Shown piece by piece: positions 14,909 to 62,767 of a stretch of 64,000 nt of DNA. The stretch lies in IMG/VR virus record IMGVR_UViG_3300048592_001370; one strand, written 5' to 3'. The notes under the pieces are model-generated. The model was not told the origin of the DNA, made no database searches, and saw only the letters and a list, made by a program, of their open reading frames with translations. A program made the translations under genes and the position numbers. The first letter of the stretch is position 1. Every line of letters begins with the position of its first letter. This DNA comes from an uncultured virus (IMG/VR IMGVR_UViG_3300048592_001370). Taxonomy: Duplodnaviria > Heunggongvirae > Uroviricota > Caudoviricetes.

Positions 14909-15402
14909 GAGACCTGTTACTGCTGCTCACGTTGTTCCTTGCTAGCCCAGCGATGGCGGTGAATTGCGAGGTAGCGTTCACCCCGGATAAGCAGGCTGTC
15001 GAGACACACATCCTTCCCATCATAGACGAAGCAAAGCGCCATCTTCGGATGCACGCCTATGCTCTGACGAATGACCAAATCGTAGCGAGCTTGATTGCCG
15101 CGAAGGAACGTGGAGTTGATGTACAGGTACTCGTCGACAAGTTCTCCATCACGGTCAAGGGTACTGATGTAGACAGGCTGTTGAAGGCAAACATTACCAT
15201 CTACATCTCGGGTGGTTCCCGGATGGGACACTCTAAGTACATCGTAGCCGACAAGCGCGTGCTGCAGACCGGTTCTTTCAACTACTCGGCGGGCGCTGAG
15301 TACAACTCGGAAAATTTGGTGATGTGTCGTTCAACCAAGTTGTCGGCGCAGTATCTGGAAGACTGGGAATCCAAACGCGCCAAGTCGAGGCTGTACGAAT
15401 GA
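14905..15402 (+). CDS. Secreted PLD-family (Nuc-like) endonuclease
   Basis: Signal peptide ending AMA; single HxKxxxxD (HSKYIVAD), GSFNYS, ENL. Confidence 0.85.
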   Translation: MRDLLLLLTLFLASPAMAVNCEVAFTPDKQAVETHILPIIDEAKRHLRMHAYALTNDQIVASLIAAKERGVDVQVLVDKFSITVKGTDVDRLLKANITIYISGGSRMGHSKYIVADKRVLQTGSFNYSAGAEYNSENLVMCRSTKLSAQYLEDWESKRAKSRLYE

Positions 15403-21319: not shown

Positions 21320-21564
21320 AGGTAGCCTATCAGGATGTGTCCCAGATCCCATCCGAACAGTATAGCCTTCCAAGAGATGGCCAGTACAACTCCCAGGATA
21401 GTGAAGAGCGTTCCGAAGATGGCTGCGTAGGAAAAGGTGATGATGGCGACCGCCATAACGAACGCGATAAGGCCGCCGAAATGTGGCTTTAGCCGATTGT
21501 ATAGATCAGGGAAGCTTCCAGGCGGCGCCTTGTCTGCTGATACCATCTCTTCATGATCCATCAT
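21313..21564 (-). CDS. Small membrane protein
   Basis: Long hydrophobic segment. Confidence 0.6.
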   Translation of the reverse strand: MMDHEEMVSADKAPPGSFPDLYNRLKPHFGGLIAFVMAVAIITFSYAAIFGTLFTILGVVLAISWKAILFGWDLGHILIGYLW

Positions 21565-22220
21565 TCCTCCGAAATTGACTTGCCGGCCCAGCCGTCTAGT
21601 AGTGCTTCGCGCTCTTCAGACAATCTCCTAAAGTTTGCACTCTCCTCTGAGAACTGTGTCGGGTAGCGTTTCCTCAGCTTGGCAATGTTGCTCTCAAGAA
21701 TGCGCTCCATTGGGACACGCAGGGTCTGTGCCAAGTGTTCCAGAATCGAGGGAACGGAGTACAGGAGGCTCTTGTGATTGCGGTACTCGACAAAGAACTG
21801 TTCCTCGTCCCGTAAGAACATTTGAGCCTCGAATGCTTCGCACGCCGGTGCTACGACGCGTACTAGCGAAATTGCGGCCTTGAACACTTCCGACAGGACA
21901 GGAGGACCGTCCGGTATAGGACGAACAGAGTAGCCTACCCGCTCAATCGACCATTCACTCTTCAGCATGTCATCGTTGGAACACATGATAGCGAAGAACC
22001 AGCACGCATCACCCAATTCTTCCGCGAGATTGATGTAGTCGACCGGCCGACGATAGTACATTGCTGCCTTGAGAGGGTTGAGTATCTCAACCGCTTCCGT
22101 CAACATGCCGAAGACGCCGTGAAACGCGTCAACGTGCATTCCCGAGACCGAGCCGTATTCCTCACAGATGAACTCCGACTTGGTCCGTACCGCCTCGGAT
22201 AAGTATTTCGAGAGCTTCAT
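21561..22220 (-). CDS. MazG-like NTP pyrophosphohydrolase
   Basis: TEAVE, EELGDACWF, NIAKLRKRYP. Confidence 0.85.
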   Translation of the reverse strand: MKLSKYLSEAVRTKSEFICEEYGSVSGMHVDAFHGVFGMLTEAVEILNPLKAAMYYRRPVDYINLAEELGDACWFFAIMCSNDDMLKSEWSIERVGYSVRPIPDGPPVLSEVFKAAISLVRVVAPACEAFEAQMFLRDEEQFFVEYRNHKSLLYSVPSILEHLAQTLRVPMERILESNIAKLRKRYPTQFSEESANFRRLSEEREALLDGWAGKSISEE

Positions 22221-33061: not shown

Positions 33062-33268
33062 CTACGAAGCGCTCATAGGATTGATCGTGGAGATAGCACT
33101 CAGATGAACCATCTGGTCCGTGGTATTCGACAGAATCAGGCAAACGTCGTCCTGTTTCGTCACGGTGCCGTTCAACTTAATGCCGTTGACCAGATACACG
33201 TGGCACGGTCTCTCGTTTTCAATCAGACTCGAAATGAACGCCTTCCGTATTTCCGAATTTTGTGTCAT
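33062..33268 (-). CDS. hfq: RNA chaperone Hfq (Sm fold)
   Basis: Sm1 VYLVNGIKLNG; Sm2 QMVHLSAISTI. Confidence 0.9.
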   Translation of the reverse strand: MTQNSEIRKAFISSLIENERPCHVYLVNGIKLNGTVTKQDDVCLILSNTTDQMVHLSAISTINPMSAS

Positions 33269-42100: not shown

Positions 42101-44312
42101 CATCACTGGGTGGTAAGCAGCGGTCCGGATATTCCAGCAAGTCCGCAGTTAAGGTGACTCCTTCTCCCAGATGCGGGTAGAAGTGACCCGTCGCAGTATT
42201 TCCGTATGGATTTGGATGTGGGTCAGTCTGATTGACGCTGTCCGGTTCCCAATACTCGGATTCCTCGATAGGGGTCGCTCCAGCCTTGTGATCGCAAACA
42301 CCGGGATCGCCCTCTTCATGGTCCGGCCAAACAGCCCAGAACGTGTCCTCCCGCTTGTAGACCAATCCGTCCGTGTCGGTACGGGCATAACCACTCTTGA
42401 GTCCCATGTTATCCCTCCTATGTCACAAAGCAGTTAGTAATTCGAATGCCGAATTTCTCCAAAATCAGATCCGCCTCCTTCCGCAAAGCGTATCCTTGTA
42501 CCTGCGCTTCGGCCTTGGACTCGAAGTTTACCCAATACACCACGACGAATACTCGGTGGTAGTAAGGTTTTACCAAAGGAGATACATACCATTCAATACG
42601 ATCCGGTTTCTCAGTACCGGACATGAGAGCCGAAAGGATGTGCCCTTGCTCCTCTGGAGAAAACAGGCCTGTATTTTGCGCTGCTTCCTTGCAGCATAGT
42701 TCCACCATCCATCGCTTCAATTTGGACATAGAGTTACTCCATGTGAGCTTGATAAGAGCCGCGAATCGGTTCCTGGGACTTCGTCAGGTAGTCGCGGAAC
42801 TGTTGCAACGCCGGCTGCGGCCGCTCCACATAGTTCTGCAGCCAACCGAGGTAGATCAGCAAGTCGGCCTGTCCTTGCTCGTCGAGCGGAAAGTATGTCC
42901 CACTTCCGCGCAACCCGGACACCGTAGTGAGAGCTACGCCGACCTGTATTCCACCCGGCGTTCTTACCAGTCGAGCGTCGAACAGTATCTCGTGGGTGGC
43001 GTGTTTCCCCGTGCCGAAGGTGATTCGTTTGACACGACCTTCAAACAAGTCGTGTAGCATTTCGACTGGCAGACTAGCAATCATGTTTGGCCTCCGGTTT
43101 CGGCATCAAGGACAGGACTTCTTCGCGTGAACTGCCTTGTCGGAGCAAGTCTGCTACCGCGCACAGATCCTTCAAGCTGACGTGTGCATAGTCCAACAAC
43201 TCAAGCGTCAGCAACAGAGCAACCTTTGCGAGTTTCTCGCCCACGAGTTTGGTTCCAATGTGCGACAGGTTGAAGGCCGTCGCAGGGATCTTGCACACCT
43301 GCATTTGCTCGAAGGTAGACTTTGAGAACTCGTCCAGATCACGGCTAACGAGGAATTGATGGACAATAGCGACTTTGTAGAACAGATCGAGATCGCTTAC
43401 CTGTCCGGAGAACGTCGTCGTGTCGTGGCATCCCAGAACATGGGTTTTGGTAACTACCTTGTCAGGATCGGCAACCGCGACACGTCCGCCGAAGCCAAGT
43501 TCGTAGATGACAAAGAGCTCAAAAGCCTTGGACCACGGTCTCCATTCCTGGATGGGATCGAAGAGCTCGTTTCCACGCTCTCGTTGGGATATGACGTACA
43601 CCTGTCCGTAGCTCATTTTGCGTGGTTCCAGTTCCGCAGTATGAACGCAGACCACGGTTGCGGATACACGACCGTTGTCCCTCCTGTGTAAGGCAGTCCG
43701 ACAAACTTGTGCAGAACTGCGCTCAGACAGGGTTCCGTGATTTCCAAGGCCAGTGAGGGGTCGCTGAGAACAGCACGTGAGACACCGGCCGCGGCATCAC
43801 CCTCCCATGTCACCTGCTGGTCGATGATGTTCTTGCATTGGATTTTGACCATGACGAGAACTCCTTTATTTGCAGAAGCGCGCTCGAAGCGCTGCCACTG
43901 CCGAGCTGGGATCGACGGGTTTCGGACGAACCACCTCCAGCACTGGGTAGTCGTAGCCGACGACCACGCCGCGAACGAGCTTCACGCGGTAGCTGGCCGT
44001 TTTGGGCGGAACAGGTTCGTCGTTCCGTAGAAAGAACTTGTTGAGGAGATAGAACAGGGCGCGTAGCAGGAGGGGACGCTTGACAGCGCCTTTGAGGTAG
44101 ACGCGGCGCCAGCCGAAACCGGTCTCGAAGATGTCGACCGCGGTCTTGATGCGTCGCAGTGCTGCGCCGGATTGGACACAGAAGGTGTCCCAGAGTTGTT
44201 TGGAGATTTGGAAAGAGGCTTCGCAGTCCGGCGTGTTTCGGTTGCGAAGGAAGTAGCGATGGGTAACTCCACGGTAGCAGAATGTGGATTCCGTTGCATA
44301 AGTAGCACGCAT
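39177..44312 (-). other. Array of about 15 small, tightly overlapping hypothetical genes (several CxxC)
   Basis: Consecutive - strand ORFs with GGAG-type RBSs, e.g. 39451-39675, 39672-39878, 40203-40610, 40607-40828, 40837-41106, 41360-41929, 42096-42407, 42418-42729, 42734-43084, 43613-43852, 43866-44312. Confidence 0.7.
39862..40251 (-). CDS. Minimal protein-kinase-like fold protein
   Basis: GATRVV..WAIKFP, VVMPRA, EEKQSSFG, VAIDYG; start uncertain. Confidence 0.5.
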   Translation of the reverse strand: MCEESARAVRKVWPEIAKGATRVVILTRRWAIKFPRPTEWRLFLHGLLGNMQERQFSRIGWEELCPVLFSIPGGWMVVMPRAIPLTDEEWEALDTYAFIDKRDGRVPVEEKQSSFGWLNGRIVAIDYGS

Positions 44313-44363
44313 GTTTTTCTCCTCAAGCTGGTATCAGATTTAAGAACTACAACAAGACGGACA

Positions 44364-44390
44364 GGGTGTGAATCTCATCGGTTCACACCC
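44364..44390 (-). terminator. Hairpin terminator candidate after the histone-like gene
   Basis: 9-bp perfect stem GGGTGTGAA/TTCACACCC. Confidence 0.5.
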
Positions 44391-44398
44391 TTCCGGTA

Positions 44399-45160
44399 TT
44401 ACTCGTCGCCTTCGTCGTCCTTGGCTTTGCGCTTGGACAGCTTCGGAAAAGGCAGGGCCTTCGTGAAAGCCGCTGGTAGGACGCGTGCTGCTTTGCGAAT
44501 CCGACGGTAGATCGGATCCTTCTTGTCCAGCGTCTTCACCTTGCCGCCTTCGCCCTTCATCTTGATTTCCTTGAAGCCGACGCGAATCGCACCGGTCGCC
44601 CGGTTGGCACCAACCCGCAGCAGGATGCGGAAGGAGGAATTGGCAGGCAGCCGGCGTTGCATGTTGGTGACGTAGGACGTGCCGCCGAGGCGCATTGCGA
44701 TGGCCGTCAGCGTATTCGGATCGTATTCCGCCAGATCGGCAAACTTGGCCTTGGGGTTGTCCGGCCGGCCACGGTAGCGGTGAGCGGCCAGGTGGCTGAA
44801 AAGCCCGTCTTTTTGCGTCTGCGTCATCACGACCAGGAAGTGTGGTTTCAGATCCGACGGAGCCTTGAACGTCATCAGCTTCTTTTTCTGCGCTGAGGAC
44901 ATGCGAGGCAGTTTCGGCTTCGCCTTCGTTCCCTTCTTGCGTGCCGGGAAGCCCTTCTTGGCAGGAGCCGGTTCCTCCTCGTCCTCGTCGGCCGCGGCTT
45001 TGCTGGCCCGCGTCTTCGACTTGGCTTTCACCTTGGCTGACTTGGCCGGTGCCTTCTTGGCCGCCGATGCGCGAGTGGTACGGGTCGGCTTCTTGACGGT
45101 TTTCTTCGCTGCTTTGGCCGGAGCTTTCCGGACCGGTTTCTTCTTCGCTTTCTTTACCAT
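44399..45160 (-). CDS. Histone H1-like Lys/Ala-rich protein with globular C-terminal domain
   Basis: KKAKKKPVRKAPAKAAKK... N-terminal region. Confidence 0.75.
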   Translation of the reverse strand: MVKKAKKKPVRKAPAKAAKKTVKKPTRTTRASAAKKAPAKSAKVKAKSKTRASKAAADEDEEEPAPAKKGFPARKKGTKAKPKLPRMSSAQKKKLMTFKAPSDLKPHFLVVMTQTQKDGLFSHLAAHRYRGRPDNPKAKFADLAEYDPNTLTAIAMRLGGTSYVTNMQRRLPANSSFRILLRVGANRATGAIRVGFKEIKMKGEGGKVKTLDKKDPIYRRIRKAARVLPAAFTKALPFPKLSKRKAKDDEGDE

Positions 45161-45256
45161 TACGGTTTCCTTTCTTTCAAAGTTTGTCACATGGTTTTTG
45201 ACTGATCGAAAGTATGCGAAATGTATGCGTGTTTCCGACCAGTTTGCTACGTCTAT

Positions 45257-45285
45257 ATTTTACAGGATTTTGTCAAGAATTGCAA
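45257..45285 (-). promoter_or_regulatory. sigma70-type promoter TTGCAA-N17-TAAAAT
   Basis: 17-nt spacer; shared TGTAAAATATA. Confidence 0.65.
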
Positions 45286-45294
45286 TCTTTGGGT

Positions 45295-45933
45295 CTACCA
45301 CGAAATCACGTGGTTTCCTTGAGATTTTAAGTATTTGTTGGCCTTAGAGAAGTGGCGACATCCGAAAAACGCTCCCCTAGCCAGCGGGGACGGGTGTGCC
45401 GCTCTTAGTACCTGATGATGCGGGTTTTGCAGAAACGGCTCATATTCCTGCGCCTTGTTTCCCCACAACATCCAGACGAGAATGGGTACTTCCTGCAATA
45501 CCTCGATTACCGCATGCGTGAACGGTTTCCACAGCTTTGCGTGACTTCCCGGTTTTCCCTCTTTCACCGTCAGAGCCGTGTTCAGCAGAAGCACCCCTTG
45601 TTTCGCATGGTGCAAACCCAACGGTTTCTTGCTGCCTGTGTCTTCCTCCATTTCTTTCATAATGTTCTTCAAACTAGCGGGTGTCTTCGTTCCTTCGGCA
45701 ACAGCGAAGGACAGACCGATTGCGTTGCCTTTCGTAGGGTAGGGGTCTTGACCTAGAATGACTACGCTGACACGATTTAAGGGTGTGGCGCGAAAGGCGC
45801 GAAAAATCAGTTTCTTTGGAGGAAAACATTCGTAGCGCGAATATTCGTAATTCACCTCCTTCTGCAGATCGTGCCACTCTGCGGAATCCAGACGTTCTTT
45901 GACCGCCGTGGACCAGTTAGGCCGCCGCGTCAT
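45295..45933 (-). CDS. ung: Uracil-DNA glycosylase, family 1
   Basis: ILGQDPY, GLSF, PASLKNI, GVLLLNTALTV, LWG, HPSPL. Confidence 0.95.
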   Translation of the reverse strand: MTRRPNWSTAVKERLDSAEWHDLQKEVNYEYSRYECFPPKKLIFRAFRATPLNRVSVVILGQDPYPTKGNAIGLSFAVAEGTKTPASLKNIMKEMEEDTGSKKPLGLHHAKQGVLLLNTALTVKEGKPGSHAKLWKPFTHAVIEVLQEVPILVWMLWGNKAQEYEPFLQNPHHQVLRAAHPSPLARGAFFGCRHFSKANKYLKSQGNHVISW

Positions 45934-46120
45934 CTTGTTTGAAACGCGTCTTGCGGTGCTTGACGTGGTGGTAGTGTTTCTCCGCACTGAGCAGAATCTT
46001 CTTGAGTTCGCTCCGCGTCGCCTTTCCGATCAGTGTCACCGTCCCATCCTTGTGCTTGATTTCCTTCGGCGGCTCTTCCTTGTGAAAGCACAGCGCAGTC
46101 TTGCCTTGTTTTGACAGCAT
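45917..46120 (-). CDS. Small hypothetical protein
   Basis: AGGAG RBS; lies between alr-like and ung. Confidence 0.55.
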   Translation of the reverse strand: MLSKQGKTALCFHKEEPPKEIKHKDGTVTLIGKATRSELKKILLSAEKHYHHVKHRKTRFKQDDAAA

Positions 46121-46123
46121 GTT

Positions 46124-47152
46124 TTAGCTCCTGTTGAAAAGGTTGTATGCTTTGTGGATGTTGGTTGCGAGTTCGGTAAGCTCGGCGAATCGGGCGTTAT
46201 GGCTACCCAGAACATCGACTTCGAACGTAGCCTCGCTCGCATCTATATCGGGAGGGTCCAGGACGAGTCCGGATTCCATACCGTTTGCCAGATAGGTGTG
46301 TGTCGTCCCGGTCTGCAAACAGCGTACCTTCACAGGCTGCTTTCGCGGCAAGCCATGGATAAAGCCCATGTCCACCCAGGCTGCTTCGCTGGGTTCAGAA
46401 TCAGCAGTAAGACCAGCGTATCCACCGAGTTGCCCTTTCGCCACCTTTTTCTGAATACGTCCGAGCAAGCTAACGACAGGTTTGAGCAGATGTGTTACAC
46501 GCGGTTCGTAGCTGTACCCATACAGTCCGATTCCGATGCGCGCTACGTCAGAGGGAATCCTGTTCGCCGTCGGGGAACTGATTATGCTCCAGGTTGTGGT
46601 CCAGCAACTGAACGCTAAATCTAGGGAGTGTTCCTTGACGACCGAGTACACTTTCCCAATCTCATCTTGTGTGACAAAAGGAACTTGATCCCACGGTGTG
46701 AGCGACCATTTGGATACGACAAACACGCCAACAACCAGATCACCCAGCTGCTTGAGCACAGTTCGCAAGTCGTCCAGATTGTCTATTCCGAAACGACCCA
46801 GATCAACATCGTAACACACCCACACAGGCGAAGCAAAAGCTCTCTGGGTTTGATGTACGGAATAGACGACGGGGAACGTATTACTCAGGAATGGCAATGG
46901 GTTATGGTCTAATGGGTTGAAGACGACTATGCGCGTTCCTACACGTTTGCGTATCTGTCGCGCTTCGGAAGCGGTAGCAACCCCGATGATGTCTGCGTAG
47001 TCAAGAAAGCGTCCCATTCCCAGATTGTCGAAACCTAGGCCATAGGCCTGGCTTTTTATCACGGCCATGACGGCGGTTGACGGCGAAAGTACCTTCCGAT
47101 ACGTCTGTAGATTGTGAGCCAGATTTTCAGGATCGCAAATGAAGAGCGCCAT
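46124..47152 (-). CDS. Alanine racemase-family PLP enzyme (divergent)
   Basis: AVIKSQAYGLG (PLP Lys), GVATASEA, LGRFG, RIGIGLYG, GGYAG (catalytic Tyr). Confidence 0.85.
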   Translation of the reverse strand: MALFICDPENLAHNLQTYRKVLSPSTAVMAVIKSQAYGLGFDNLGMGRFLDYADIIGVATASEARQIRKRVGTRIVVFNPLDHNPLPFLSNTFPVVYSVHQTQRAFASPVWVCYDVDLGRFGIDNLDDLRTVLKQLGDLVVGVFVVSKWSLTPWDQVPFVTQDEIGKVYSVVKEHSLDLAFSCWTTTWSIISSPTANRIPSDVARIGIGLYGYSYEPRVTHLLKPVVSLLGRIQKKVAKGQLGGYAGLTADSEPSEAAWVDMGFIHGLPRKQPVKVRCLQTGTTHTYLANGMESGLVLDPPDIDASEATFEVDVLGSHNARFAELTELATNIHKAYNLFNRS

Positions 47153-47153
47153 T

Positions 47154-48323
47154 TCAGGATTCCGAAATGCGCTGCATGAACTGCTTCAGCTCTGGGTCAT
47201 CGGGATATTCCATGTACCAAACCTTCTTGCTCGCCCGGTAGGAGTGTCGGTTCCACGCCGAAGCTAGCAGATGGAAGACGAGATTGAGAAAACCATCGTC
47301 TTTGCCTTCTTCAGTAGCGAAGCGTTTGCGGAAATTCCGCATGTTGTAGCCGTTGTAGAGCACGCCTGGGATGGCATTCGTTTCCAAGAAGTAATAGCGC
47401 CCGTTTTCCTCGTCGAACATGAAGTCCAGCCGTGTGAAACCTTCAAGGTCGAACGCGAAGGTAATCATCCGAGCGTATTCTAGCAACTCTGGGTGATACT
47501 CGGTCACCTCCGTCACTTCTAGACCACCGACGTTCTTCTTGTTCCCCTCATCGAGTATTTGTTGCTCACCGTGTAGGTAGAACACACCGCAGGTCGTAAT
47601 GCCCGAATTTCCTTGTACGTCCATGAGAGAGACAACAGGAACGGTCAATTCCTTGCCTTTGATAACTTCCTGGATGACGAATCGGTCGCCGTATTCCCTG
47701 TTCGCGCGAATGAACGGAACGATCTGGTCGAACTCTTCCTTCTCGAAGGTGCGCGTCATTACGGAACCCCCCAGACGCGCCGGCTTGACGATAACCGTGT
47801 CACCCAGTCCGTTCCACAGGACGTTTTCGTCATCCCGTATCTCCCCCGACGCATCGACCAAGGCCTGAGCAGGGAACCAGACGTTCGTCGGTAAGCCAAG
47901 CGATTCCACGAAGGCACTAGCAATTGCCTTGTCCGTGCTTCCTACTTCTCCCCACACTTCGGAATGCGTGTTCGGTATTCCCAGCAGGCGCAATAGGCCA
48001 CCGACATGTCCGTCCTCGCAATAGTGATCGTGTGTGATGCTATAGACGACCACGTCTTTGTAGATGTTCGAGAACCACGTTGCCCAGGTTGGCAAGTTGG
48101 GGAAGGTCGACCCAAACTTGGTCATGGACAGTTTGTCGAAATCGACGGATATTTCATTCACTGTCCCGTCGCGCTCCCAACGAAAGACAGCGAGCGGACC
48201 GTTTTGCCAGCCCACGCGGTTGAATTCGCGCAGCACTGAGAGCATTCCGCGGAGCGAGATCATGTGTCCTGTGCTGGGACCACCGCAGAGGATTACGAAA
48301 GGGATGTTGGGCTTATCAGACAT
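47154..48323 (-). CDS. D-Ala-D-Ala ligase-family ATP-grasp enzyme (divergent)
   Basis: GGPSTGH..S, EDG, DK, VKPARLGGS, QEVIKGKE, RLDF, ETNAIPG. Confidence 0.85.
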   Translation of the reverse strand: MSDKPNIPFVILCGGPSTGHMISLRGMLSVLREFNRVGWQNGPLAVFRWERDGTVNEISVDFDKLSMTKFGSTFPNLPTWATWFSNIYKDVVVYSITHDHYCEDGHVGGLLRLLGIPNTHSEVWGEVGSTDKAIASAFVESLGLPTNVWFPAQALVDASGEIRDDENVLWNGLGDTVIVKPARLGGSVMTRTFEKEEFDQIVPFIRANREYGDRFVIQEVIKGKELTVPVVSLMDVQGNSGITTCGVFYLHGEQQILDEGNKKNVGGLEVTEVTEYHPELLEYARMITFAFDLEGFTRLDFMFDEENGRYYFLETNAIPGVLYNGYNMRNFRKRFATEEGKDDGFLNLVFHLLASAWNRHSYRASKKVWYMEYPDDPELKQFMQRISES

Positions 48324-49186
48324 GGCGTTCCTCGATTAGCATATTGATAGAAGGCGTCCTGTACTTCTTGTACGGTAAGGGCCGGCTTACGCCCGAATAG
48401 GAATGACTCCCGGTACTGCGGATTGTCCATCGGATTCTTTATGTAGCGGAAATGGTCTCGGGTGTTGGAATTGATACAAGCAACCATTCGTCGGAAACAC
48501 GCTTGGCATTCGCCACACGCCCACTCAGTCGGGTGGTAGCAGGACTTGGTCTGCATCAGCGTGGTCCATCCTAGTCCTTTCACCGTCAGCGCCATCAAGT
48601 CGCTCTTCGTTAGGAGCTGAACAGGAGAGAATACTTCCACCTTCTTGCCCAGAACCAGCGAGCAGATGTCTGACATCTTGGTTCTGAATTCATGTGTGCA
48701 ATCAGCAATCGCATCGTAGTAATTGTCATCCGCTACGTTTGCCATCATGATGGCGTCCGGTTCGTACATGGCCGCTATAGACGCAAGGGCCAAGTTCCGC
48801 GCTGGTATCCCTGCCATCTTCAACGAATGCCGTGACTGCAAGTATTTGCTATGCAGAATCGGAAGGGAGAGCGTCTCTACGTGTGGGAGTTCCAGCGAAC
48901 TTACTAGCTTCTCGAAGCAAGACCGCTCCATGTCATTGTATTCCTGACCGAGGTCGAGACGAAGAGCTATGATGGTAGCTGTAGAGTACCAATCAGTATG
49001 CCTAAGCAGGCGCAAAGCAGCAAAGCTATCGAAGCCACCGGACACGAGAAAAACAACTCGCTTGATCTGGTTACACCTCAATTCATCGTCCAGCAGATTC
49101 AGATACTGCTTGATGTAGGTGGACGGATCTCCCTTGTACACCTTACCTGCGTACTGCGAAAGATAGTTCTCAGGTCTCAAGATCAT
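48293..49186 (-). CDS. queC: QueC-like PP-loop ATPase (7-cyano-7-deazaguanine synthase family)
   Basis: SGGFDS, LGQ, IPARNL, DCTHEF, SP..LTK, SCY...CGECQACFRR. Confidence 0.8.
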   Translation of the reverse strand: MILRPENYLSQYAGKVYKGDPSTYIKQYLNLLDDELRCNQIKRVVFLVSGGFDSFAALRLLRHTDWYSTATIIALRLDLGQEYNDMERSCFEKLVSSLELPHVETLSLPILHSKYLQSRHSLKMAGIPARNLALASIAAMYEPDAIMMANVADDNYYDAIADCTHEFRTKMSDICSLVLGKKVEVFSPVQLLTKSDLMALTVKGLGWTTLMQTKSCYHPTEWACGECQACFRRMVACINSNTRDHFRYIKNPMDNPQYRESFLFGRKPALTVQEVQDAFYQYANRGTPCLISPTSLS

Positions 49187-50301
49187 AGGTATTGGTCGTA
49201 ATGGTCGATCACTTGTTTGACGAAGAAGTTGTCCCACGGAACGAACGTTTCGTTCTCCTCTATGGATTGGGACAGCTCGCGAATTCTGTACACTCCGCAA
49301 TCATATTTACCGTCATAGATTCCGAGTGCGGAACGATGGTTGCGTTCCTCGAACAGATTCACGCCTTCTATAGCTAGTCCGTCCGGCTTTTGCACAGCCG
49401 CTGTTTTGCACAAGGACGCAATGCGCTGGCACTTGTCGCACTTCCCACACCACTTTGGCGCTGTCCGGCTGCAGGAACAATAATGCAATTTACCTTTGTT
49501 CGCCAGAATCGTGACGATGGACAACTGTGTGAACATGCTGGTTGCGGAATAGGCACGCACCTTTAATCCGAAGTGTTCGGCTAACAGATTGTAGTAGTTC
49601 TGCGTTTGGAAGTAGTCGTGGGTCGGGTAGATGAAGCCCTTGTCCCGGTACTTAACCCAATACATTTCCTGCCGTTCCTTCTCGTCGCCGAAGAAGACGT
49701 TGTCGTACCCCTTCATTTCCGCCCAGTAGAGTATCAGCAGCCTCTGGATGGCAACGAACATGGGGTATATCTGAGGCGAACCTGTGAGGCCAAATAAGGG
49801 GTCAAGATGCTTGTGAATGACGATCGGAGCTTCCTGATCGATGACCGACGTGAAATCGTTCATCTGACAGCGGTCATGCATCGTGACGTGATGCATAGGA
49901 ATGCCAAGCGTCTGGAACATGTCATTCGCCAGAACGCTTTCCTTGCCTCCCGAATAGGCAAGTAGGTTCTTCTGCTGTTTGACAAGGGCCAGTGACAACG
50001 GTTCTTTCACCTTCGCGTATTTGTGCAGCAGATGAGTGATGGGTTTGTAATCGTCGATCCAGATGTTAAACTCCACATCCATCATCATGCAGTAGAGGTT
50101 GTAGTAAAAATTGGTGATGTCGGAATACGGGCCTATATTCTCCCGTCCCGACAGCCGATCTGGCATAGCCTTGAGCAAGGCAAACAAATGCCAGTACGGC
50201 TCCGCCGCTCCAAGCTCCGGTATCTCCATCGAGATATCTTTGCAGAAGGGTAGTTCTATTCTTTGTATTGCGGCACGGCGTTTAAGGGCTGCTTCGGTCA
50301 T
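49183..50301 (-). CDS. PP-loop ATPase with Zn motif (MurL-like/HUP superfamily)
   Basis: LLAYSGGKES, FGDE, SCS....WCGKCDKC. Confidence 0.6.
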   Translation of the reverse strand: MTEAALKRRAAIQRIELPFCKDISMEIPELGAAEPYWHLFALLKAMPDRLSGRENIGPYSDITNFYYNLYCMMMDVEFNIWIDDYKPITHLLHKYAKVKEPLSLALVKQQKNLLAYSGGKESVLANDMFQTLGIPMHHVTMHDRCQMNDFTSVIDQEAPIVIHKHLDPLFGLTGSPQIYPMFVAIQRLLILYWAEMKGYDNVFFGDEKERQEMYWVKYRDKGFIYPTHDYFQTQNYYNLLAEHFGLKVRAYSATSMFTQLSIVTILANKGKLHYCSCSRTAPKWCGKCDKCQRIASLCKTAAVQKPDGLAIEGVNLFEERNHRSALGIYDGKYDCGVYRIRELSQSIEENETFVPWDNFFVKQVIDHYDQYL

Positions 50302-51890
50302 GATTCAAGCTCCGGTGGTGTAAGACGGTTAAGATTGCCCAAGATGATCGTTTCCATTTCTTCTCTGTTGTAGTGCTTGAGGCTCTCATCGGCGAACAAA
50401 CGCCGCACTTCCTCTTTCGCTTCCTTCCAGGACTGTCTCTGTGCCTCATGGAAAAGCCGGAATAGCCTGCCGTCTGGTTCTCGCCATTCCGTGCCAAATT
50501 CGGGATTGTACTGTGACGTGATGCCCGCATCAACCCGGTGCTTAATCAAATCGACCAGCTCTTGAGGCTCTGTGTTCAAGGATAGCCCCGCTGCTTCCTC
50601 TAGCAAGTCGAAAAGTTGCTTGCCCATGAAAGCAATGAGATTGGGATAACGCAAGGCGGCCTTAATGGCGTTCTGTTGCTGCTCTGCAACCTTGATCGTG
50701 ACTAGCAATCGGTGCCTTAGCTTGTCGAGCTCGCTCTGCTCATGCAAAGAAGCATTCGCTATACCGGGAGCCTTCGCTTGTTGTGAGATTATTGGCTCGT
50801 CGTCTAGTGTGCGGATGTAGTCCCCGGGACAAGTACATTCGGGATCGACCCCCGGTTGACGCAGCGTGGAGGCCGGACAGTTAAGCTGATGTGGGTAGCT
50901 CAGTAGGGACATTGTTTCCTCACGGTTTCCTAGGAGGCTGTTGCAGAGCGTCGAGACGCGGGGCTGTGTATTCCGACTGCACGGAACAGCTCTTTATTCT
51001 GACATCTTTCTGATTCACGAGAATGCACTCTGCGGGAAAGAAAAGATGCCTCGGAGCGCAAGGGTGCAAACACATGCTGTTTTGGAACTGCGTGCAGTTA
51101 ATGTTCACTGGCATGTTGTCCTCTCAGAATCCGCTTGTCGGCGCATAACCCAACAAGTTTGGACGCTCCGTGAATTTCAAGTACGGATCATTGGGTTTGC
51201 GACGCGAGTCGTACAGTTGCTGGATTGTCATGAGGTGGGCGTAGGCGATTTGCGGATACAGGCTTCCTACCATGTCGTAGTAGAGTTTCCTCAGCTCGTT
51301 ATACTCGTCCGCAAGCTGCTCTTGCGTCAACTCCTTTAACTCCTCTTCGCTCCTCATAACTTCACCAATGTCCCATCGCAGAGTTTGTGGAGGAAGTATT
51401 CCGGGCGATTTATCCGCAACCACATCGAAGGCGGGGTAGGATAGCGTTTATCGTACTCGTGTTTCCAGTATGGCTGATGACAAATCGTGCAGATGCAATC
51501 TCCTGCGGCACGTAGGAACTCTGGAACATCGGTACGCTGTCGATACCTTTCGAGTATCTCGGGCCATTGCTCTACCACACAGTCCAGGAAACGTACCACT
51601 AATTCCCGATCTATCTGGACCCTATCCGTTCGTGTTTGTTCCTGGACTGTTCTCTGAAGGGAATTCCGACTACTGAGGAGTCCCTCCACGATTAGGGCTT
51701 GGCGTTCGTCCCACTTGCCCTCGCGATATATCCAGAACACTGGGGCGCCCTGTGTATCTCGACCGGCGTAGGAAAGGGCCTTCTTTTCTCCCAGAGGTGG
51801 GTCTTTCAAATCCTCGAATTTTTCACACGGTGGACAGAAGTACACGCCAGTGGGATCTGGCGGATTGTAGGTCGGCGTTGCTTCAGGCAT
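50298..51890 (-). other. Four hypothetical genes (50298-50912, 50920-51114, 51124-~51357, 51354-51890)
   Basis: Packed - strand ORFs with RBSs; several are Cys-rich. Confidence 0.6.
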
Positions 51891-51919
51891 GTATATTCTC
51901 CGAATGATCGGTTCACTAC

Positions 51920-51929
51920 CTATTTACAA
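51920..51929 (-). promoter_or_regulatory. TTGTAAATAG motif, copy 2
   Basis: Intergenic, 30 nt upstream of the ATG at 51890. Confidence 0.4.
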
Positions 51930-51930
51930 C

Positions 51931-52338
51931 TTAGCAGATTTTGACGAGGAAACCAAGTGTCCATTCAGACCGTGGCTCTAGTAGGCCAGCGCGGGATGGA
52001 TGTGGATCGTGGAATATATCTCCATTGCGGCCAACCACGGCGTGTAGCGTATTCACGTCCCTAGGAGAAGGTCCATAGATCATGTGGAACATGTCGCTTA
52101 CATCGTAGAATTTGCAGCGTTCACAGAAGCCACGGTATTCCAGCTCAAGGTGCATTAGGCCGAAGGGTTGGAGAAAACGGTTGATGCGACGTGCAAATTC
52201 AATACCTTGGTTTTCTGGGAGGTCAAGCAGGAAATTGGGGACTTGCGAGATGTCGAGATCGAGAAGGGACGCCAGACACGCAGACTGGCAGTCCCCTTTA
52301 CTCGGATCGTCGACCACAATCTGGTCGACTGGCGTCAT
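51931..52338 (-). CDS. Possible papain-fold cysteine peptidase-like protein
   Basis: GDCQSACLASLL...HAVV...HDP. Confidence 0.45.
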   Translation of the reverse strand: MTPVDQIVVDDPSKGDCQSACLASLLDLDISQVPNFLLDLPENQGIEFARRINRFLQPFGLMHLELEYRGFCERCKFYDVSDMFHMIYGPSPRDVNTLHAVVGRNGDIFHDPHPSRAGLLEPRSEWTLGFLVKIC

Positions 52339-53759
52339 TGTCGTTTAGCTTTGTCCATAAGAATAACGATTAACGGAAGCAACATGGTGCCTATTGAGGC
52401 AGCCAGTGCCAGCATTGGTTGTTTGGTAAGTGTAGCCCACGCAAACAGCGGCAAACCGCTCAGCATGCTGAGCGCAATACCCCAGAACACGCTTCTTTCT
52501 GTTGCGGCCTTTCCACGGGTAGCAAGAGTGTAGACGGTTGGCATAAACGTCGCGGCACGTAATGTCCCGTAAAACAGGAACAGATGGAGCAATTGCAAGC
52601 CTGGGATAAGAGCTATCAGCAGGGCCGCGAGCGTCAGGAACACCATGCTCATTCGACTAAAGCCTATTTCCAGTTTCTCGCCACCCTGTGCCAGGTAGCG
52701 TTCCTTTACATCATGACCCGCGATGGATGAGATAGAACACATCTTTGAATCGAGGATCGAAACGATACCAGAAAGCACCATTGCGATAAAGACCATGCTA
52801 CACCAGAATGGCAGGTTTGCCAGTATGAACTCAATATTTACCATCTGTGGATCTTTGGGTTTGAATCCACTACCGGCGGCGGCCCAGCCAAATAGCGCCA
52901 TTCCTATTGGAACAAGCCCGAAGATAAGGCCTCCAGCTATGAAAGACCGCTTTATGTACCTCGGATCCTCCATTGCAAAAGCGCGTTGCCAAAAAGCCTG
53001 GTCTCCGAAGGGACCGGCCAGCAGACCGATTGTGGCGGGTACGCCGAATGCAATCAGTATCTCCAAACCACGAGCGTCAAACAAACCACCTATGTCTTTC
53101 TTGACACCGGAGAAACCCGCTAGGATTGTGTCTAATCCCACATTAGCGAACAGGACAGGGATGAGCAAGACAAACCCCAGCAGCATCAAAGCCATTTTGA
53201 CAAAATCAGTAAAGATGGAACTGCGGAGTCCGAAGATCAGAGAATACGACAAGGGAAGGATCGATAGCAGAATGACGCTGAACATGAAGTCCCAGCCTGC
53301 AATTACCGAGAGGAGTTTGCCACCCGCAAGAAGTTGAACGGCGAAGGCACAGACGGTCAGACCGATCAAACCCAACCAGTACAAATTCTGCACCCGTTCC
53401 GAATAAGTGTCTCTCATAAGATCACTCAAGGTGAAACCACTAGGCCGCATTTCTCGAATGCGCTGAGCAAAGAAAGCAAACAATACCAAACAAAGCACGT
53501 TAGGAACTGTGAACCAGAACAAACCTACCCAACCCTCAAGGTAGGCTTTTTGTGCCGACACAAACATTCCAGTTGCCCACGTCCAGGCCGCCGCTACAGA
53601 AAAGGAAGACGCGATCCAACCTATCTGGCGATCGGCTACGAGGAAGTTGAGTTTTGTCGCAAGCCGCCCATTGTTAGCGACTACAGAGATAGAGTAGCTC
53701 GCTAGGAGCAAGGTTAGGAAAAAGATTGGCAAGAACCAACCTGTAGACAGTGACTGCAT
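52335..53759 (-). CDS. Sodium:solute symporter (SSS family, urea/proline-like)
   Basis: About 13 TM; FLVADR, SVAAAWTWA, GLRSSIFTD, DQAFWQRAFA, SILDS. Confidence 0.88.
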   Translation of the reverse strand: MQSLSTGWFLPIFFLTLLLASYSISVVANNGRLATKLNFLVADRQIGWIASSFSVAAAWTWATGMFVSAQKAYLEGWVGLFWFTVPNVLCLVLFAFFAQRIREMRPSGFTLSDLMRDTYSERVQNLYWLGLIGLTVCAFAVQLLAGGKLLSVIAGWDFMFSVILLSILPLSYSLIFGLRSSIFTDFVKMALMLLGFVLLIPVLFANVGLDTILAGFSGVKKDIGGLFDARGLEILIAFGVPATIGLLAGPFGDQAFWQRAFAMEDPRYIKRSFIAGGLIFGLVPIGMALFGWAAAGSGFKPKDPQMVNIEFILANLPFWCSMVFIAMVLSGIVSILDSKMCSISSIAGHDVKERYLAQGGEKLEIGFSRMSMVFLTLAALLIALIPGLQLLHLFLFYGTLRAATFMPTVYTLATRGKAATERSVFWGIALSMLSGLPLFAWATLTKQPMLALAASIGTMLLPLIVILMDKAKRQ

Positions 53760-53809
53760 GAGGATACCTCCAAATAGGTTGATGTAAAGTAAGCCAAATA
53801 CTGGAAATT

Positions 53810-53889
53810 GCTCGACGCGAGCGGAGGGATCTATGTCCCGGTCCCGAAGATGGGAAACTAGCGAGGGAAGGGGCCCGAAGGCCCGCTTC
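53810..53889 (-). promoter_or_regulatory. Structured leader upstream of the SSS transporter
   Basis: cUUCGg hairpin plus three short hairpins in a 130-nt gap. Confidence 0.4.
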
Positions 53890-53891
53890 AA

Positions 53892-55862: not shown

Positions 55863-56477
55863 TTAGATTCCAGAAACGCGACGCGCTTCCTTGTCGCGTT
55901 CTGTCAGTTCGATGAGGGGACGCACATACTTTCGGTTCTCATCGGTGATGTACTTGCCAATACCTGGATATGCAATCGGCCAATCCAACAGCCTTTCCAA
56001 GTACCGCAAATAGTCTACACCTAGAAGCAGCAGTGCTTCGTAGCTGAGAACATGGGACCCTAGATGCAATAGTTTTTCCAATACTGGAAGGGCCTTAGGT
56101 AGTGAACAATCCTTGCGAACACGTTTCTGTTGATACGAAACAATGTTCGGTTCACGAGTGACAATGGCACAGGAGACAGCAACCCCTATTTTGGAACAAC
56201 GCTCCAACAAGCCTTCTATGTTCGGTACATATAAATTACCTTCTTGCATGTACGGTACGCTTATGCTGGTCACCGTACATCGCGTCTCGAAAAAGTCCGC
56301 TTCCAAGGCCGCAGGATCTTGCCAGTAGCGAAACATTGGTTCTTCGCTGTGAGGAAGCCAATCGTGAAAGAGCAACGATTTCCAACCGCTGACATCTGGG
56401 TGGTAGCTGAATATCTTGGCCCATGCGTGATTGCATGTTCCTTGCGGGCCAGCTATTATCAGTAGCTTCTTTTGCAT
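55863..56477 (-). CDS. Sulfotransferase-like P-loop-fold protein
   Basis: LLIIAGPQGTCNH...HPDV, IVTREP, LSYE. Confidence 0.55.
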   Translation of the reverse strand: MQKKLLIIAGPQGTCNHAWAKIFSYHPDVSGWKSLLFHDWLPHSEEPMFRYWQDPAALEADFFETRCTVTSISVPYMQEGNLYVPNIEGLLERCSKIGVAVSCAIVTREPNIVSYQQKRVRKDCSLPKALPVLEKLLHLGSHVLSYEALLLLGVDYLRYLERLLDWPIAYPGIGKYITDENRKYVRPLIELTERDKEARRVSGI

Positions 56478-57913
56478 GTTTCCCTCCAGTGTTCGGAAAT
56501 ACGCCACCAGACAATGGACAAACTGACCAACATGAGAACCATGAATATGGGGCGCGTAGCCAGCTCTACGGGTTGGTACAGTGACAAGGTCTGTCCGATG
56601 TATGATTCGATGCGTTCTATCAGGATGAACGAGATCAGAAGGGCTGGTCTGTTCAAGTCATACTTCTTGCAGAAAATCCCTAGGCCTGAGCAGAACAACA
56701 GAATAGCAAAGTCCTCCCATCCGCCGGTGTATTGCATACACGACCAAACGATGATGGCAAAAAGACCAGTAGCGAATATCCAATACGGAAGCAATAACAG
56801 CTTCACGACGTACTGGACGGAGAACAGACTTAGCGGTAAGACCAGAATCGTACTAGCAACAAAAGACCACGCTAGCACCCAAAGGAATTTGTCGTCCCTC
56901 AGAACGGTAGGCGAACCCAACTCCATTCCGAAGGTCATGCAGATTGCCATCATTACGGCCGCGAAGGGAGCTCCGGGAACTCCGAACAGGATCGCCGGGA
57001 TCAAGCTGCTGGCCTTCTGACTATTGTTCGCACCCTCCGGACCGATCACTCCCTTGACGTTACCTGTCCCGAATTCGATTTGTTCCTTCGGATGCTTCGA
57101 CGTTGTCCAGGTGTAGGCCAGTAAATCGCCAATGCTGCCACCCACTCCAGGAAGCATTCCTGTGAAGAATCCTATAGCTCCGCCTTGCAGAGCAAGTTTC
57201 CTATTGATCCAAACGTCTCGAAAACCTTGTCGGACTTGTGACCAGTAATCAAGAATGAGGGCGTGTTTCTGATTTCTGCCTTTCCAACCGTCGACTATTT
57301 CCGGTATGCCGAATAGTCCCGCCACTATGGGAAGGATTTGAATACCCGCGTTCAAGTAGTCCCAACCACCTGTCAGACGCGGTACGCCAGTTCCGGCATC
57401 TAGTCCTACCAGGCCGAGCAAGGCTCCTATCCCGATAGACGGCAAGCTTAGCACAGGGTTCTTGCGTGTGATGAAAGCAACGCAGCACAAGCTGAGTATG
57501 GTGAACGCAGCGAATTCAGGTACGCCCAAGTAGAGTATGACTTGTCGATAGAAGGGTAGCAACCCAAAAGCTAGGAGCCCCCAGAAAACACCATTGAACG
57601 TAGAAGTGAGAAGGGCTGCAGAGATAGCTCGGGCCGCCTCACCGCGCAAGGCCATGGGATAGCCATCGAAAACCGTCGACGCCGTCGTGTTTGACCCGGG
57701 AACACCTGTTAGGATAGACGAGAACGAATCTCCTGTGCTTGATGCTGCAATGAGCGACGTTAGGAAGATGATTCCGAGATAGGGATTGGCTAGGAAATGG
57801 TCAGACAATGCAAAAACCGTTATCAGACCTGTGGTTGCACCGGCAACGGGAACGACACCGATGAAAAAGCCGTACAGCGTACCCAGCAACAAATACAGCA
57901 GCTCATCCAACAT
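56459..57913 (-). CDS. tctA: TctA-family tripartite tricarboxylate transporter large subunit
   Basis: SILTGVPG, FDGYPMALRGEA, GMLPGVG, GVIGPEGANNS, FGVPG. Confidence 0.9.
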   Translation of the reverse strand: MLDELLYLLLGTLYGFFIGVVPVAGATTGLITVFALSDHFLANPYLGIIFLTSLIAASSTGDSFSSILTGVPGSNTTASTVFDGYPMALRGEAARAISAALLTSTFNGVFWGLLAFGLLPFYRQVILYLGVPEFAAFTILSLCCVAFITRKNPVLSLPSIGIGALLGLVGLDAGTGVPRLTGGWDYLNAGIQILPIVAGLFGIPEIVDGWKGRNQKHALILDYWSQVRQGFRDVWINRKLALQGGAIGFFTGMLPGVGGSIGDLLAYTWTTSKHPKEQIEFGTGNVKGVIGPEGANNSQKASSLIPAILFGVPGAPFAAVMMAICMTFGMELGSPTVLRDDKFLWVLAWSFVASTILVLPLSLFSVQYVVKLLLLPYWIFATGLFAIIVWSCMQYTGGWEDFAILLFCSGLGIFCKKYDLNRPALLISFILIERIESYIGQTLSLYQPVELATRPIFMVLMLVSLSIVWWRISEHWRETCKRSY

Positions 57914-58199: not shown

Positions 58200-58909
58200 A
58201 TATGTTCCCTTGGTGGTTTCTTGTAGCGAAATACCAAGCGGCCATTGTCTTCTGTCTGGATAGGACCGATCACTTCGACATTGAACAGTTTTGCAAAGTC
58301 GGATATCCAGACTTCGTCCCAAGGAAAATATTCCATCTCAGGATCGGTAGGATGTGATAGTCCAGGATTGACACGGAAGATAGCCAAGCCGCTTGGTGCC
58401 AGGATTCTAAGGACCTTTTCCACGCTTGCATGAATAACGTGAAAGGATCCGAAGTTGATGCTTCCTAGTGCTAAAACGACATCGTAGAATTCGTCTTCAC
58501 AGTCGAACTCTAAGAAATCGACCACGCGGTCGGCGTTCGGATTGAACTTGTCGATACCGTACAGGTTCGGTATCTTGTCACGGAAGGGGTTATCTCCACA
58601 ACCTATGTCGAGAACGCGTCTCGGTTGGAGAGCGTTCACTTCTTCAACAAGGTTGCACCCGCTATATTTGAGGGATTCGATGTTTGAGACATACACGCCA
58701 GTGAAATGCTTCTTGAGCATCTCTTCCTCGTTTTGCGTGTACCCCGTTAAATTACAGTCACTCAGAATTTTCTCGATCCCTTTGTGATGACGACTACTAG
58801 CCGCGGCCACACCATGCGCGTAGTCACTTTCGCCCGCGCAATAGTCAGACGCTACCATCTCACGTATGCGATACAGGGCTCGTTCCAGACGAGCTTCTCT
58901 GTCACTCAC
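58121..58909 (-). CDS. Class I SAM-dependent methyltransferase
   Basis: VLDIGCG, GID, YDVVLALGSINF, LAPSG; GTGA overlap start (alternative ATG at 58720). Confidence 0.85.
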   Translation of the reverse strand: MSDREARLERALYRIREMVASDYCAGESDYAHGVAAASSRHHKGIEKILSDCNLTGYTQNEEEMLKKHFTGVYVSNIESLKYSGCNLVEEVNALQPRRVLDIGCGDNPFRDKIPNLYGIDKFNPNADRVVDFLEFDCEDEFYDVVLALGSINFGSFHVIHASVEKVLRILAPSGLAIFRVNPGLSHPTDPEMEYFPWDEVWISDFAKLFNVEVIGPIQTEDNGRLVFRYKKPPREHICRPTSTSSQTTMDQKRNIEYGKSQA

Positions 58910-59700
58910 CGATTTGCCAGTTTCTGGACGTTGTTCCTTATCTCGTTCCATTTTTGGACATGCCTCGCGACGTTGTGAAAGTTGACTTGGGCCCAATTGT
59001 TCGTCTTGACTTGCTTGAGTTTGCGCAGACGCTCGATAGCTTGTGTCATCCAGTGAGTACGCATCCACTTGCCGTACGATGTGAAGTATTGAACGCCGGT
59101 AACAAACTTTATCTGCCCATCGAGGTAACTGCTCCACTTCGGGAAGTCGAACGTATCCGATACTATTTCGTGATACAGGCCAAGAAGCAGTTCCTGGCCT
59201 TCGGCGTCGTGCAGATGGAATGGAAGAAACACGTCCGCGTCGCGCAAAGCCTTCTCGATCAGGGTAGTAGGTTCTTTCGGAAAATAACCACCGTGATATA
59301 CGGTCTTCCGAATGGCTTCTGCTATTGTATCACGGTTCGACCGGTCCAGGAATGCGATTTCCTGCTCTTGGCACGCCTGTCGGAGACAGTAGACAGCGAT
59401 TTCTACGTTCTCGGGATCGGAGAGTTGACCAACCGAATGGCCGCAGTCGTGAAACATGGCCGCAACAACACCTAGCGTCTGCGAATACTTTTTCGTCAGA
59501 GGACCGTCGTACTCTTCGTGGTCCAGAATAGCCATGACGTCGCACACCATGTACTTCATGTGCTGCAATCCGTGATAGGGTGCCCCAGAAGCTGGATTGT
59601 GTATCAGCCACCAATCGTACAAGCTGGATAACCCCAAGTTCTTGATTATCAGATCGAAGCGATTCGGATGGTACAGAGCTAGGTGTTGTTTTGGGATCAT
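58906..59700 (-). CDS. HD-domain phosphohydrolase
   Basis: PYHGLQH, AAMFHDCGH, LRDAD. Confidence 0.85.
   Translation of the reverse strand: MIPKQHLALYHPNRFDLIIKNLGLSSLYDWWLIHNPASGAPYHGLQHMKYMVCDVMAILDHEEYDGPLTKKYSQTLGVVAAMFHDCGHSVGQLSDPENVEIAVYCLRQACQEQEIAFLDRSNRDTIAEAIRKTVYHGGYFPKEPTTLIEKALRDADVFLPFHLHDAEGQELLLGLYHEIVSDTFDFPKWSSYLDGQIKFVTGVQYFTSYGKWMRTHWMTQAIERLRKLKQVKTNNWAQVNFHNVARHVQKWNEIRNNVQKLANR

Positions 59701-62691: not shown

Positions 62692-62767
<76 letters not shown>

Follow-up and report, generated by a model that had tools for sequence, protein, structure and literature searches.

A 64,000-nucleotide (nt) part, hereafter the window, of the 207,582-bp contig of an uncultured jumbo phage (IMG/VR record IMGVR_UViG_3300048592_001370) carries a cassette of four genes, g1 to g4, which encode a MurL-like PP-loop enzyme, a QueC-like enzyme, a Ddl-like ligase and an Alr-like racemase. 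We conclude that this cassette, whose own g1 and g3 copies lie on that contig, is real and rare, and that such a set of known enzyme kinds has so far not been described from a phage. Judged from the sequences, its chemistry is probably the addition of a D-amino acid to a carboxylate acceptor, together with epimerisation and perhaps amidation. More tentatively, we suggest that the cassette represents a ribosome-independent, ATP-driven peptide-tailoring line that has the UDP-N-acetylmuramoyl-peptide (UDP-MurNAc-peptide) of the host as acceptor. In the order of transcription, the four genes are as follows.

49183..50301, minus strand: g1, 372 amino acids (aa), MurL-like PP-loop enzyme; QueC-type core, Cys-rich motif at the C-terminus
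48293..49186, minus strand: g2, 297 aa, divergent QueC-family PP-loop enzyme
47154..48323, minus strand: g3, 389 aa, Ddl-family ATP-grasp ligase
46124..47152, minus strand: g4, 342 aa, Alr-type fold-III pyridoxal-phosphate (PLP) racemase

The four open reading frames (ORFs), followed by a small ORF and ung, lie where the original prediction had placed them (46124-50301, minus strand), and all motifs that it quoted are present in g1 to g4. Its four family assignments also agree with the profile matches detailed below (MurL NF041275, QueC PF06508, TIGR01205 and PF01168). g1 and g2 overlap in an ATGA, g2 and g3 overlap by 31 nt with a GAGGA before g3, and g3 and g4 are separated by 1 nt. Because of the ATGA overlap, g2 most likely starts at the ATG at 49186 and not at the upstream TTG (the ORF spans 48293-49300). 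By this layout, g1 to g4 are four translationally coupled genes. In a bioreactor-sludge sequencing run, contigs of a strain with 90-99% similarity share this gene order, with coverage of 30 of 30 bins in the interval 44000-52500; a sediment run covers 28 of the 30 bins. Wastewater and groundwater runs cover 8/30 and 4/30 bins and were not used for habitat. No RNA run was listed among those that contain the region, two labelled RNA-Seq being probably DNA. In all five listed pairs of single-base insertions or deletions (indels) relative to the similar strain, the second change restores the frame within 10 nt, and the only further indel has a length of 6 nt; the reading frames of the cassette are, therefore, kept. 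Together, the sequence comparisons indicate that the genes of the cassette are genuine and evolve under constraint. For g1, g2 and g3, relatives with 61%, 67% and about 74-75% identity, respectively, exist, the longest contig listed for each having 21,993 bp; we read these entries as one contig. Thus, conservation of the genes as a group elsewhere, an issue raised by the original prediction, is seen for these three genes.

Among 5.8 billion clustered proteins, a single diverged relative of this rare cassette is seen, and the identity of its proteins to any cellular homologue is about 25%. Among 50,697 GenBank phage records, tblastn found no match to g1 or g4. g3 matched 11 of these records at 23-29% identity with sequences that look like bacterial ddl, one of the records being a 289-kb Salmonella contig annotated ddl/murC, and g2 matched 147 at about 26% identity, mostly QueC or Gat-QueC. 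Neither blastn of the DNA at 45000-51000 nor tblastn of two relatives of g1 (P0013 and P0016) gave a match in these phages. No relative came out of IMG/VR scans with g1 (in two alignment orderings), g2 and g3; the g4 scan pointed to one stretch with a relative and returned zero loci, and a degenerate DNA pattern for one g4 motif gave no match. No true relative was found in scans of JGI metagenomes and GTDB genomes. Two candidates from these scans were rejected: a PAPS-reductase-like phage PP-loop gene beside a terminase gene (L003, JGI), which has a PP-loop match only, and a generic ATP-grasp gene beside polA in a metagenome-assembled genome of Acidobacteriaceae (L004, GTDB), which is a chance peptide match. 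The statement that no phage system with this combination has been described holds for the 50,697 phage records and the IMG/VR scans (g1, g3), as well as for our literature searches, which found no description of such a phage cassette.

g1 contains the motifs SGGKES at 117, SC at 276 and CGKCDKC at 285. It matches no Pfam family, and its sole NCBIfam match is MurL (NF041275), with 30.1 bits (E 1.7e-7) against a cut-off of 700 and with residues 100-324 aligned to profile positions 128-363 of 447; a relative of g1 (P0002) scores 16.3 bits on the same model. A phmmer search of 1.84 billion representatives returned 29 proteins at E <= 0.001, g1 itself included. None of the nine closest relatives (P0013-P0021) matches the MurL model at E <= 0.01, and we therefore place g1 in a branch beside MurL rather than in MurL itself. 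Ten of the 19 more distant relatives match MurL full-length at 185-426 bits, none of them reaching the 700-bit cut-off. G119, S122, C277, C285, C288 and C291 of g1 are invariant in 30 sequences, of which ten are MurL-matching. An AlphaFold2 model of g1 has a predicted local distance difference test (pLDDT) score of 81.8 and a QueC-type core; VIA-align superimposes it on QueC (3bl5; Z 9.5, root-mean-square deviation 3.5, 164 residues aligned) and on Cap9 (9nto_B; Z 8.6). The Foldseek check that had been proposed gave, for this model against the PDB, weak PP-loop matches only (best E 2.8e-3). In the ESM Atlas, g1 falls on MurL clusters with a template modelling score of 0.70 over 320 aligned residues, and Uroviricota is the most frequent phylum in the cluster nearest by features, which numbers 182 members; this is one lead and not a proof. 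To our knowledge, no other member of the enzyme group of MurL has been characterised, and MurL is the one known ATP-driven, one-way peptide epimerase. g1 is presumed to adenylate a carboxylate. In two papers (PMC8788868, PMC5808125), MurL is described as needing ATP and Mg, yielding AMP, and acting from L to D only, with a proposed adenylation of the terminal alpha-carboxylate.

g2 passes the gathering threshold of the QueC family (PF06508; 79.6 bits, E 3e-22, gathering 22) and is below the equivalog cut-off of TIGR00364 (59.8 vs 150.3 bits). It also matches phrog_1550 (E 9e-27) and, over the whole length, the PADLOC QueC model (E 2.8e-14; residues 40-235 on positions 4-184 of 190), and has ~40 extra N-terminal and ~60 extra C-terminal residues. 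SGGFDS at 49, IPARN with R130, the Asp-Cys of YPDC, TKSD with K194 and the zinc motif with its Tyr (CYHPTEWACGECQAC at 216) are retained, the last with the spacing C(x)7C and not C(x)8C. Two tyrosines of QueC are changed, Tyr35 to Leu and Tyr131 to Ile, where g2 reads LGQEY...E and IADC in an alignment of ~30% identity in which a one-residue shift is possible. The relative of g2 reads LGHEY and IPDC, with His for the Gln of the motif. A structure model of g2, built from a three-sequence alignment, was unusable (pLDDT 44.1).

These residues bear on the proposal, made in the original prediction, that g2 activates 7-carboxy-7-deazaguanine by adenylation and couples it to a D-amino acid or dipeptide supplied by g4 and g3, with the resulting base entering the phage DNA. 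We consider this proposal unlikely, and the same applies to an extended form in which the g1 epimerase would also help to build a D-terminated dipeptide for 7-deazaguanine and in which DpdA, QueD and QueE could lie in the other 143 kb of the contig. According to the 2026 study of E. coli QueC that defined the canonical signature, Y35A, R99A, Y131A and Y189A each abolish function (PMC13329287); thus, g2 has replaced two residues that are essential there, the stacking Tyr131 included. In Cap9, the deazaguanine is reported to stack on a Tyr and an Arg and to hydrogen-bond an Asp, and the adenylated carboxylate can be joined to amines other than ammonia (bioRxiv 10.1101/2025.04.06.647259). Because g2 retains the Arg and the Asp, it keeps two of these three base contacts, and this, together with the intact SGGFDS, Lys and zinc motifs and the use of amines by Cap9, argues for the deazaguanine proposal. 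The QueC-like protein of phage Moby argues in the same direction: it is encoded in a FolE/DpdA/QueE cluster and, by alignment, also lacks the equivalents of Tyr35 and Tyr131, so that the changed tyrosines only lower the probability of a deazaguanine substrate for g2. Genomic context likewise offers points on both sides. ung is in the same gene array, and folE is present in the window as had been noted; however, folE, the sole basis on which the deazaguanine idea had been raised, is 45 kb from the cassette. This folE (201-839, plus strand) is divergent, with 95.6 bits under NCBIfam cut-offs of 162-202, and adjoins replication genes at the start of the window. Moreover, g2 is embedded with MurL-, Ddl- and Alr-like genes and not with que genes, and no DpdA, QueD or QueE was found in the window by Pfam (89 ORFs) or PHROGs (55 large ORFs), these gene-content scans covering 64 of 207 kb. 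No particular acceptor among those originally proposed is supported.

g3 clearly belongs to the Ddl family as judged by its profile matches (TIGR01205, 113.6 bits, E 9e-33, below the cut-off of 245.65; PF07478, E 1.6e-14). Its motifs are GGPSTGH at 14, VKPARLGGS at 179, TRLDF at 297 and LETNAIPG at 313, and it reads FYLHGEQQ where Ddl has the YxxKY loop. We aligned g3 to E. coli DdlB and to eight ordinary Ddl proteins. The ATP-grasp residues K180, R298, D300, E314 and N316 are invariant in 10/10 aligned sequences. By the same alignment, Glu15 of DdlB is replaced by G19, Ser150 by G186 and Lys215/Tyr216 by Q254/Q255, the last in an omega loop whose alignment is uncertain due to an insertion holding KK at 262-263. 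Glu15 is kept in all eight ordinary Ddl proteins and is Gly in both phage-type proteins, and in g3 five residues are inserted behind the PG motif, at the place where the second D-Ala binds in DdlB. We take the Glu15/Ser150/Tyr216 triad of DdlB to hold the first D-Ala (D-Ala1), with the Glu holding its free amine, and Lys215 to be D-Ala-specific as well. The loss of the acidic residue for the free amine of D-Ala1 suggests that the donor of g3 is an N-substituted carboxylate. Because the odd motifs of g3 are identical in the relative with about 75% identity, we regard them as functional and under selection rather than as decay. Thus, both parts of the earlier description of g3, a kept catalytic core and the absence of the canonical substrate residues, agree with the alignment.

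g4 matches PF01168 (E 4e-19) and the C-terminal model of VanT-G (E 2.8e-18, residues 7-331), is below the cut-off of TIGR00492 (63.6 vs 168 bits), and aligns full-length with alanine and serine racemases (4ecl, 2odo, 4y2w). Its catalytic core is also kept, with the PLP lysine K33, the second base Y245, R120 and R205 assigned by alignment. The motifs are VIKSQAYGLG at 31, GGYAG at 243, GFIHG at 263 and GMES at 291. The substrate motifs are altered relative to GYADG and CMD, as originally described, but the divergence had been overstated: the changes are Y to F, D to H and D to E, with the Met kept. Because most of these changes are conservative, the specificity of g4 is not readable from sequence. 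We read g4 as a working racemase for a small amino acid, and it may be an ordinary one.

An ordinary g4 would also fit another explanation, namely that there is no joint pathway and that the genes are separate auxiliary genes for an alanine racemase, a D-Ala-D-Ala ligase and a preQ0 synthase that supplement host pools in the course of a long infection. The intact catalytic cores, the conservative changes in g4 and the presence of several metabolic genes in the window are consistent with this explanation, and metabolic genes are common in jumbo phages. However, the proteins score far under the equivalog cut-offs (30 vs 700, 59.8 vs 150.3, 113.6 vs 245.65 and 63.6 vs 168 bits for g1 to g4), g3 lacks the D-Ala1 triad that 8/8 ordinary Ddl proteins have, g2 lacks two essential QueC residues, and an identity of ~25% to any cellular homologue does not look like that of a gene taken recently from a host. 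We therefore hold the separate-genes explanation to be improbable.

In the peptide-tailoring line that we tentatively favor as the most economical reading, three ATP-dependent carboxylate activations and one racemase would act in four steps, which we infer from the family chemistry and the altered pockets. First, the racemase g4 would provide a small D-amino acid, most simply D-Ala. Second, the ligase g3 would phosphorylate the carboxylate of an N-substituted donor, for example a peptide or acyl end, and join an amino acid to it. Third, g1 would adenylate a terminal alpha-carboxylate and invert that residue from L to D in the manner of MurL. Finally, g2 would adenylate a carboxylate and convert it to an amide with ammonia or, as in Cap9, an amine. 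With the UDP-MurNAc-peptide of the host as acceptor, infected cells would produce an edited stem peptide. Among acceptors, the soluble cell-wall precursor UDP-MurNAc-peptide of the host is the front-runner, if a doubtful one; we rank it first because it is the substrate of the one relative of g1 that has been characterised and because there is precedent for a racemase, a ligase and an amidation acting together. In lactic acid bacteria, wall precursors are reported to be edited with racD, aslA (a D-Asp ligase) and asnH (amidation) (PMC4155827).

Several points weigh against a cell-wall target. No Mur ligase or other mur gene was detected in the window (Pfam, 97 ORFs). Ddl and Alr are present in nearly every bacterium; because a divergent member of either family will always match cell-wall enzymes first, the inference of a cell-wall role is weakened. 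Unless the product contains two D-residues, there is no need for both a racemase and an epimerase. The cassette sits within a long, densely packed minus-strand array that continues for many kb, and scans for promoters and terminators came out at shuffle level (12 vs 10.5 +/- 3.2 and 17 vs 15.7 +/- 3.8, respectively). For these two reasons, the borders of the cassette are undefined and adjacency means little. Lastly, the linkage in what we read as one relative contig covers g1, g2 and g3 of the four genes.

Nearly as likely as UDP-MurNAc-peptide as acceptor, although still rather doubtful, is a free product: the same chemistry would yield a small peptide or pseudopeptide with a D-amino-acid end, perhaps amidated, that serves as a metabolite (an inhibitor, a signal or a cofactor-like compound) and is not attached to the wall. 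That none of the nine nearest relatives of g1 matches MurL indicates that this branch need not act on UDP-MurNAc. Two transporter genes, which lie a few kb upstream in the minus-strand array of the cassette, point the same way. They encode a sodium:solute symporter (SSF; 52335-53891, minus strand; PF00474; phrog_20720, E 1.4e-104), for which PanF and PutP are the nearest NCBIfam models, and a TctA-type tricarboxylate transporter subunit (56459-57913, minus strand; PF01970, E 1.3e-89), alongside which TctB and TctC were not recognised. Against a free product, no product, export gene or regulator is tied to the cassette, and the link to the transporters is one of adjacency only.

The genes that directly flank the four-gene cassette are as follows.

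50298..50912, minus strand: g0, 204 aa, no known family; its stop overlaps the g1 start (ATGA)
45917..46120, minus strand: g5, 67-aa basic ORF, isoelectric point 9.9, ends DDAAA
45295..45933, minus strand: ung, family-1 uracil-DNA glycosylase; ORF 45295-45987, with ATG 45933 as the probable start

g0 has no match in Pfam, NCBIfam or PADLOC, a best ESM Atlas score of 0.84 and a poor structure model of its own; it may or may not be part of the cassette. On the other side, g4 and g5 are separated by 3 nt with an AGGAG 7 nt upstream of g5, and g5 overlaps ung by 17 nt. No family match was found for g5 in Pfam, NCBIfam, PHROGs or PADLOC, and no relatives were found; its frame is kept in the related strain by a compensated indel pair (45936/45943). 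ung scores above the cut-offs of NF003592 (225.1 vs 162 bits) and TIGR00628 (214.3 vs 185.75 bits), and by these matches and its overlap it is a true, full family-1 uracil-DNA glycosylase coupled to g5. Directly downstream of ung, a 263-aa protein (44399-45190, minus strand) has an N-terminal third consisting of a Lys/Ala/Pro-rich basic repeat that resembles histone H1-like DNA-binding proteins, and no family match in Pfam, NCBIfam or PADLOC. Upstream of the cassette lies a gene for a Cys-rich 178-aa protein (51354-51890, minus strand) with CPPC and CICTIC...H motifs and a weak PHROG match only.

The coupled g5 ORF with its Ala-rich end, positioned after g4, brings in modification of a protein as a further explanation. 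Here, g2 would act on an N-terminus in the manner of Cap9 or QatC, while g1 and g3 would act on a C-terminus, the target being g5 itself or a protein of host defence, with countering QueC-based immunity as a possible purpose. The whole-length match of g2 to the PADLOC QueC model and the resemblance of the g1 core to Cap9 are consistent with this explanation. By contrast, no Cap10, CD-NTase, QatA, QatB or QatD was found, none of 13 other neighbouring proteins matches PADLOC, and g5 is without detected relatives. We regard protein modification as very unlikely, and neither it nor the 7-deazaguanine proposal has positive support in the window.

The window is that of a phage, with PHROGs matches for a large terminase (E 1e-175), a portal, a head protease, DnaB- and SF2-type helicases, both topoisomerase II subunits and an NAD-dependent ligase. 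The large terminase has at most 39.7% identity to any GenBank phage, and its nearest matches are Phage NCTB and jumbo phages of Xanthomonas, Erwinia, Vibrio and Pseudomonas. Because the G+C content is uniform over the window (0.50-0.54), the cassette is not a compositional island. An Rfam scan of the window gave only a tRNA at the gathering score, with one chance snoRNA match (E 0.65) and no riboswitch; the tRNA, a single tRNA-Thr (TGT) at 62692-62767 on the minus strand, was identified by ARAGORN as well. The phage also encodes a 68-aa Hfq-like protein (33062-33268, minus strand; PF17209, E 4.5e-12). Genes of a nucleotide-metabolism type code for an HD_5 phosphohydrolase (12602-13210, plus strand), a PLD-like protein (14905-15402, plus strand), a MazG-like pyrophosphatase (21561-22220, minus strand) and a second HD-type phosphohydrolase (58906-59700, minus strand), and these could have a bearing on nucleotide pool editing.

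One of the known systems closest to the cassette is the MurD2/MurL alternative route to D-Glu in Xanthomonas oryzae. g1 shares with MurL the PP-loop core, the Cys-rich C-terminal motif and the overall predicted fold and, as in that route, adjoins an ATP-dependent amide ligase, consistent with a "ligate, then epimerise" design. However, g1 scores 30 bits against a cut-off of 700 and has 372 aa against a 447-position model, and its nine closest relatives have no MurL match; the partner in the cassette is an ATP-grasp Ddl-like enzyme and not a Mur ligase, there are an extra racemase and a second PP-loop enzyme, and the carrier is a phage. With Alr plus Ddl, VanT/VanC and VanH/VanA, the cassette shares folds and catalytic residues, and a racemase beside a Ddl-family ligase is a Van-type arrangement. 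In contrast to these systems, g3 lacks, by alignment, Glu15, Ser150, Lys215 and Tyr216, and the cassette has no VanX/VanY-type peptidase and no regulator; the Van ligases presumably also keep the equivalent of Glu15. Cap9 and QatC are repurposed QueC relatives that attach deazaguanine to proteins (PMC13329287; bioRxiv 10.1101/2025.04.06.647259). g2 has in common with QueC, Cap9 and QatC the SGGxDS and IPARN motifs, the Asp-Cys of YPDC, the conserved Lys and the zinc motif with Tyr, and differs from them by Leu for Tyr35, Ile for Tyr131, the C(x)7C spacing, and the N- and C-terminal extensions; moreover, the cassette has no queD/queE neighbours in the 64-kb window and no CBASS or Qat partners. 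Finally, the racD/aslA/asnH system is alike in combining a racemase, a ligase and an amidating enzyme that work on a wall precursor in the cytoplasm. Of these, RacD is an Asp/Glu-type racemase, AsnH is of the asparagine-synthase type, and Aslfm is an ATP-grasp enzyme. These enzyme families differ from those of the cassette, and the analogy is, therefore, one of logic and not of homology. The edit made by racD/aslA/asnH is described as altering the action of wall hydrolases (PMC4155827).

A phage relative of MurL that is wired to a Ddl-like ligase, a racemase and a second QueC-fold enzyme would extend MurL chemistry beyond bacterial wall synthesis, and the cassette, with its four genes, would be a small system suited to expression and assay. 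If the target were a nucleobase or a protein, the modification would be of a new kind; specifically, were the 7-deazaguanine proposal true, an amino-acid-bearing 7-deazaguanine would represent a new class of DNA hypermodification. If, instead, the target is the wall precursor of the host, the cassette would exemplify a phage that alters the chemistry of peptidoglycan from within the cell, with a bearing on lysis timing, superinfection exclusion and resistance to wall hydrolases.

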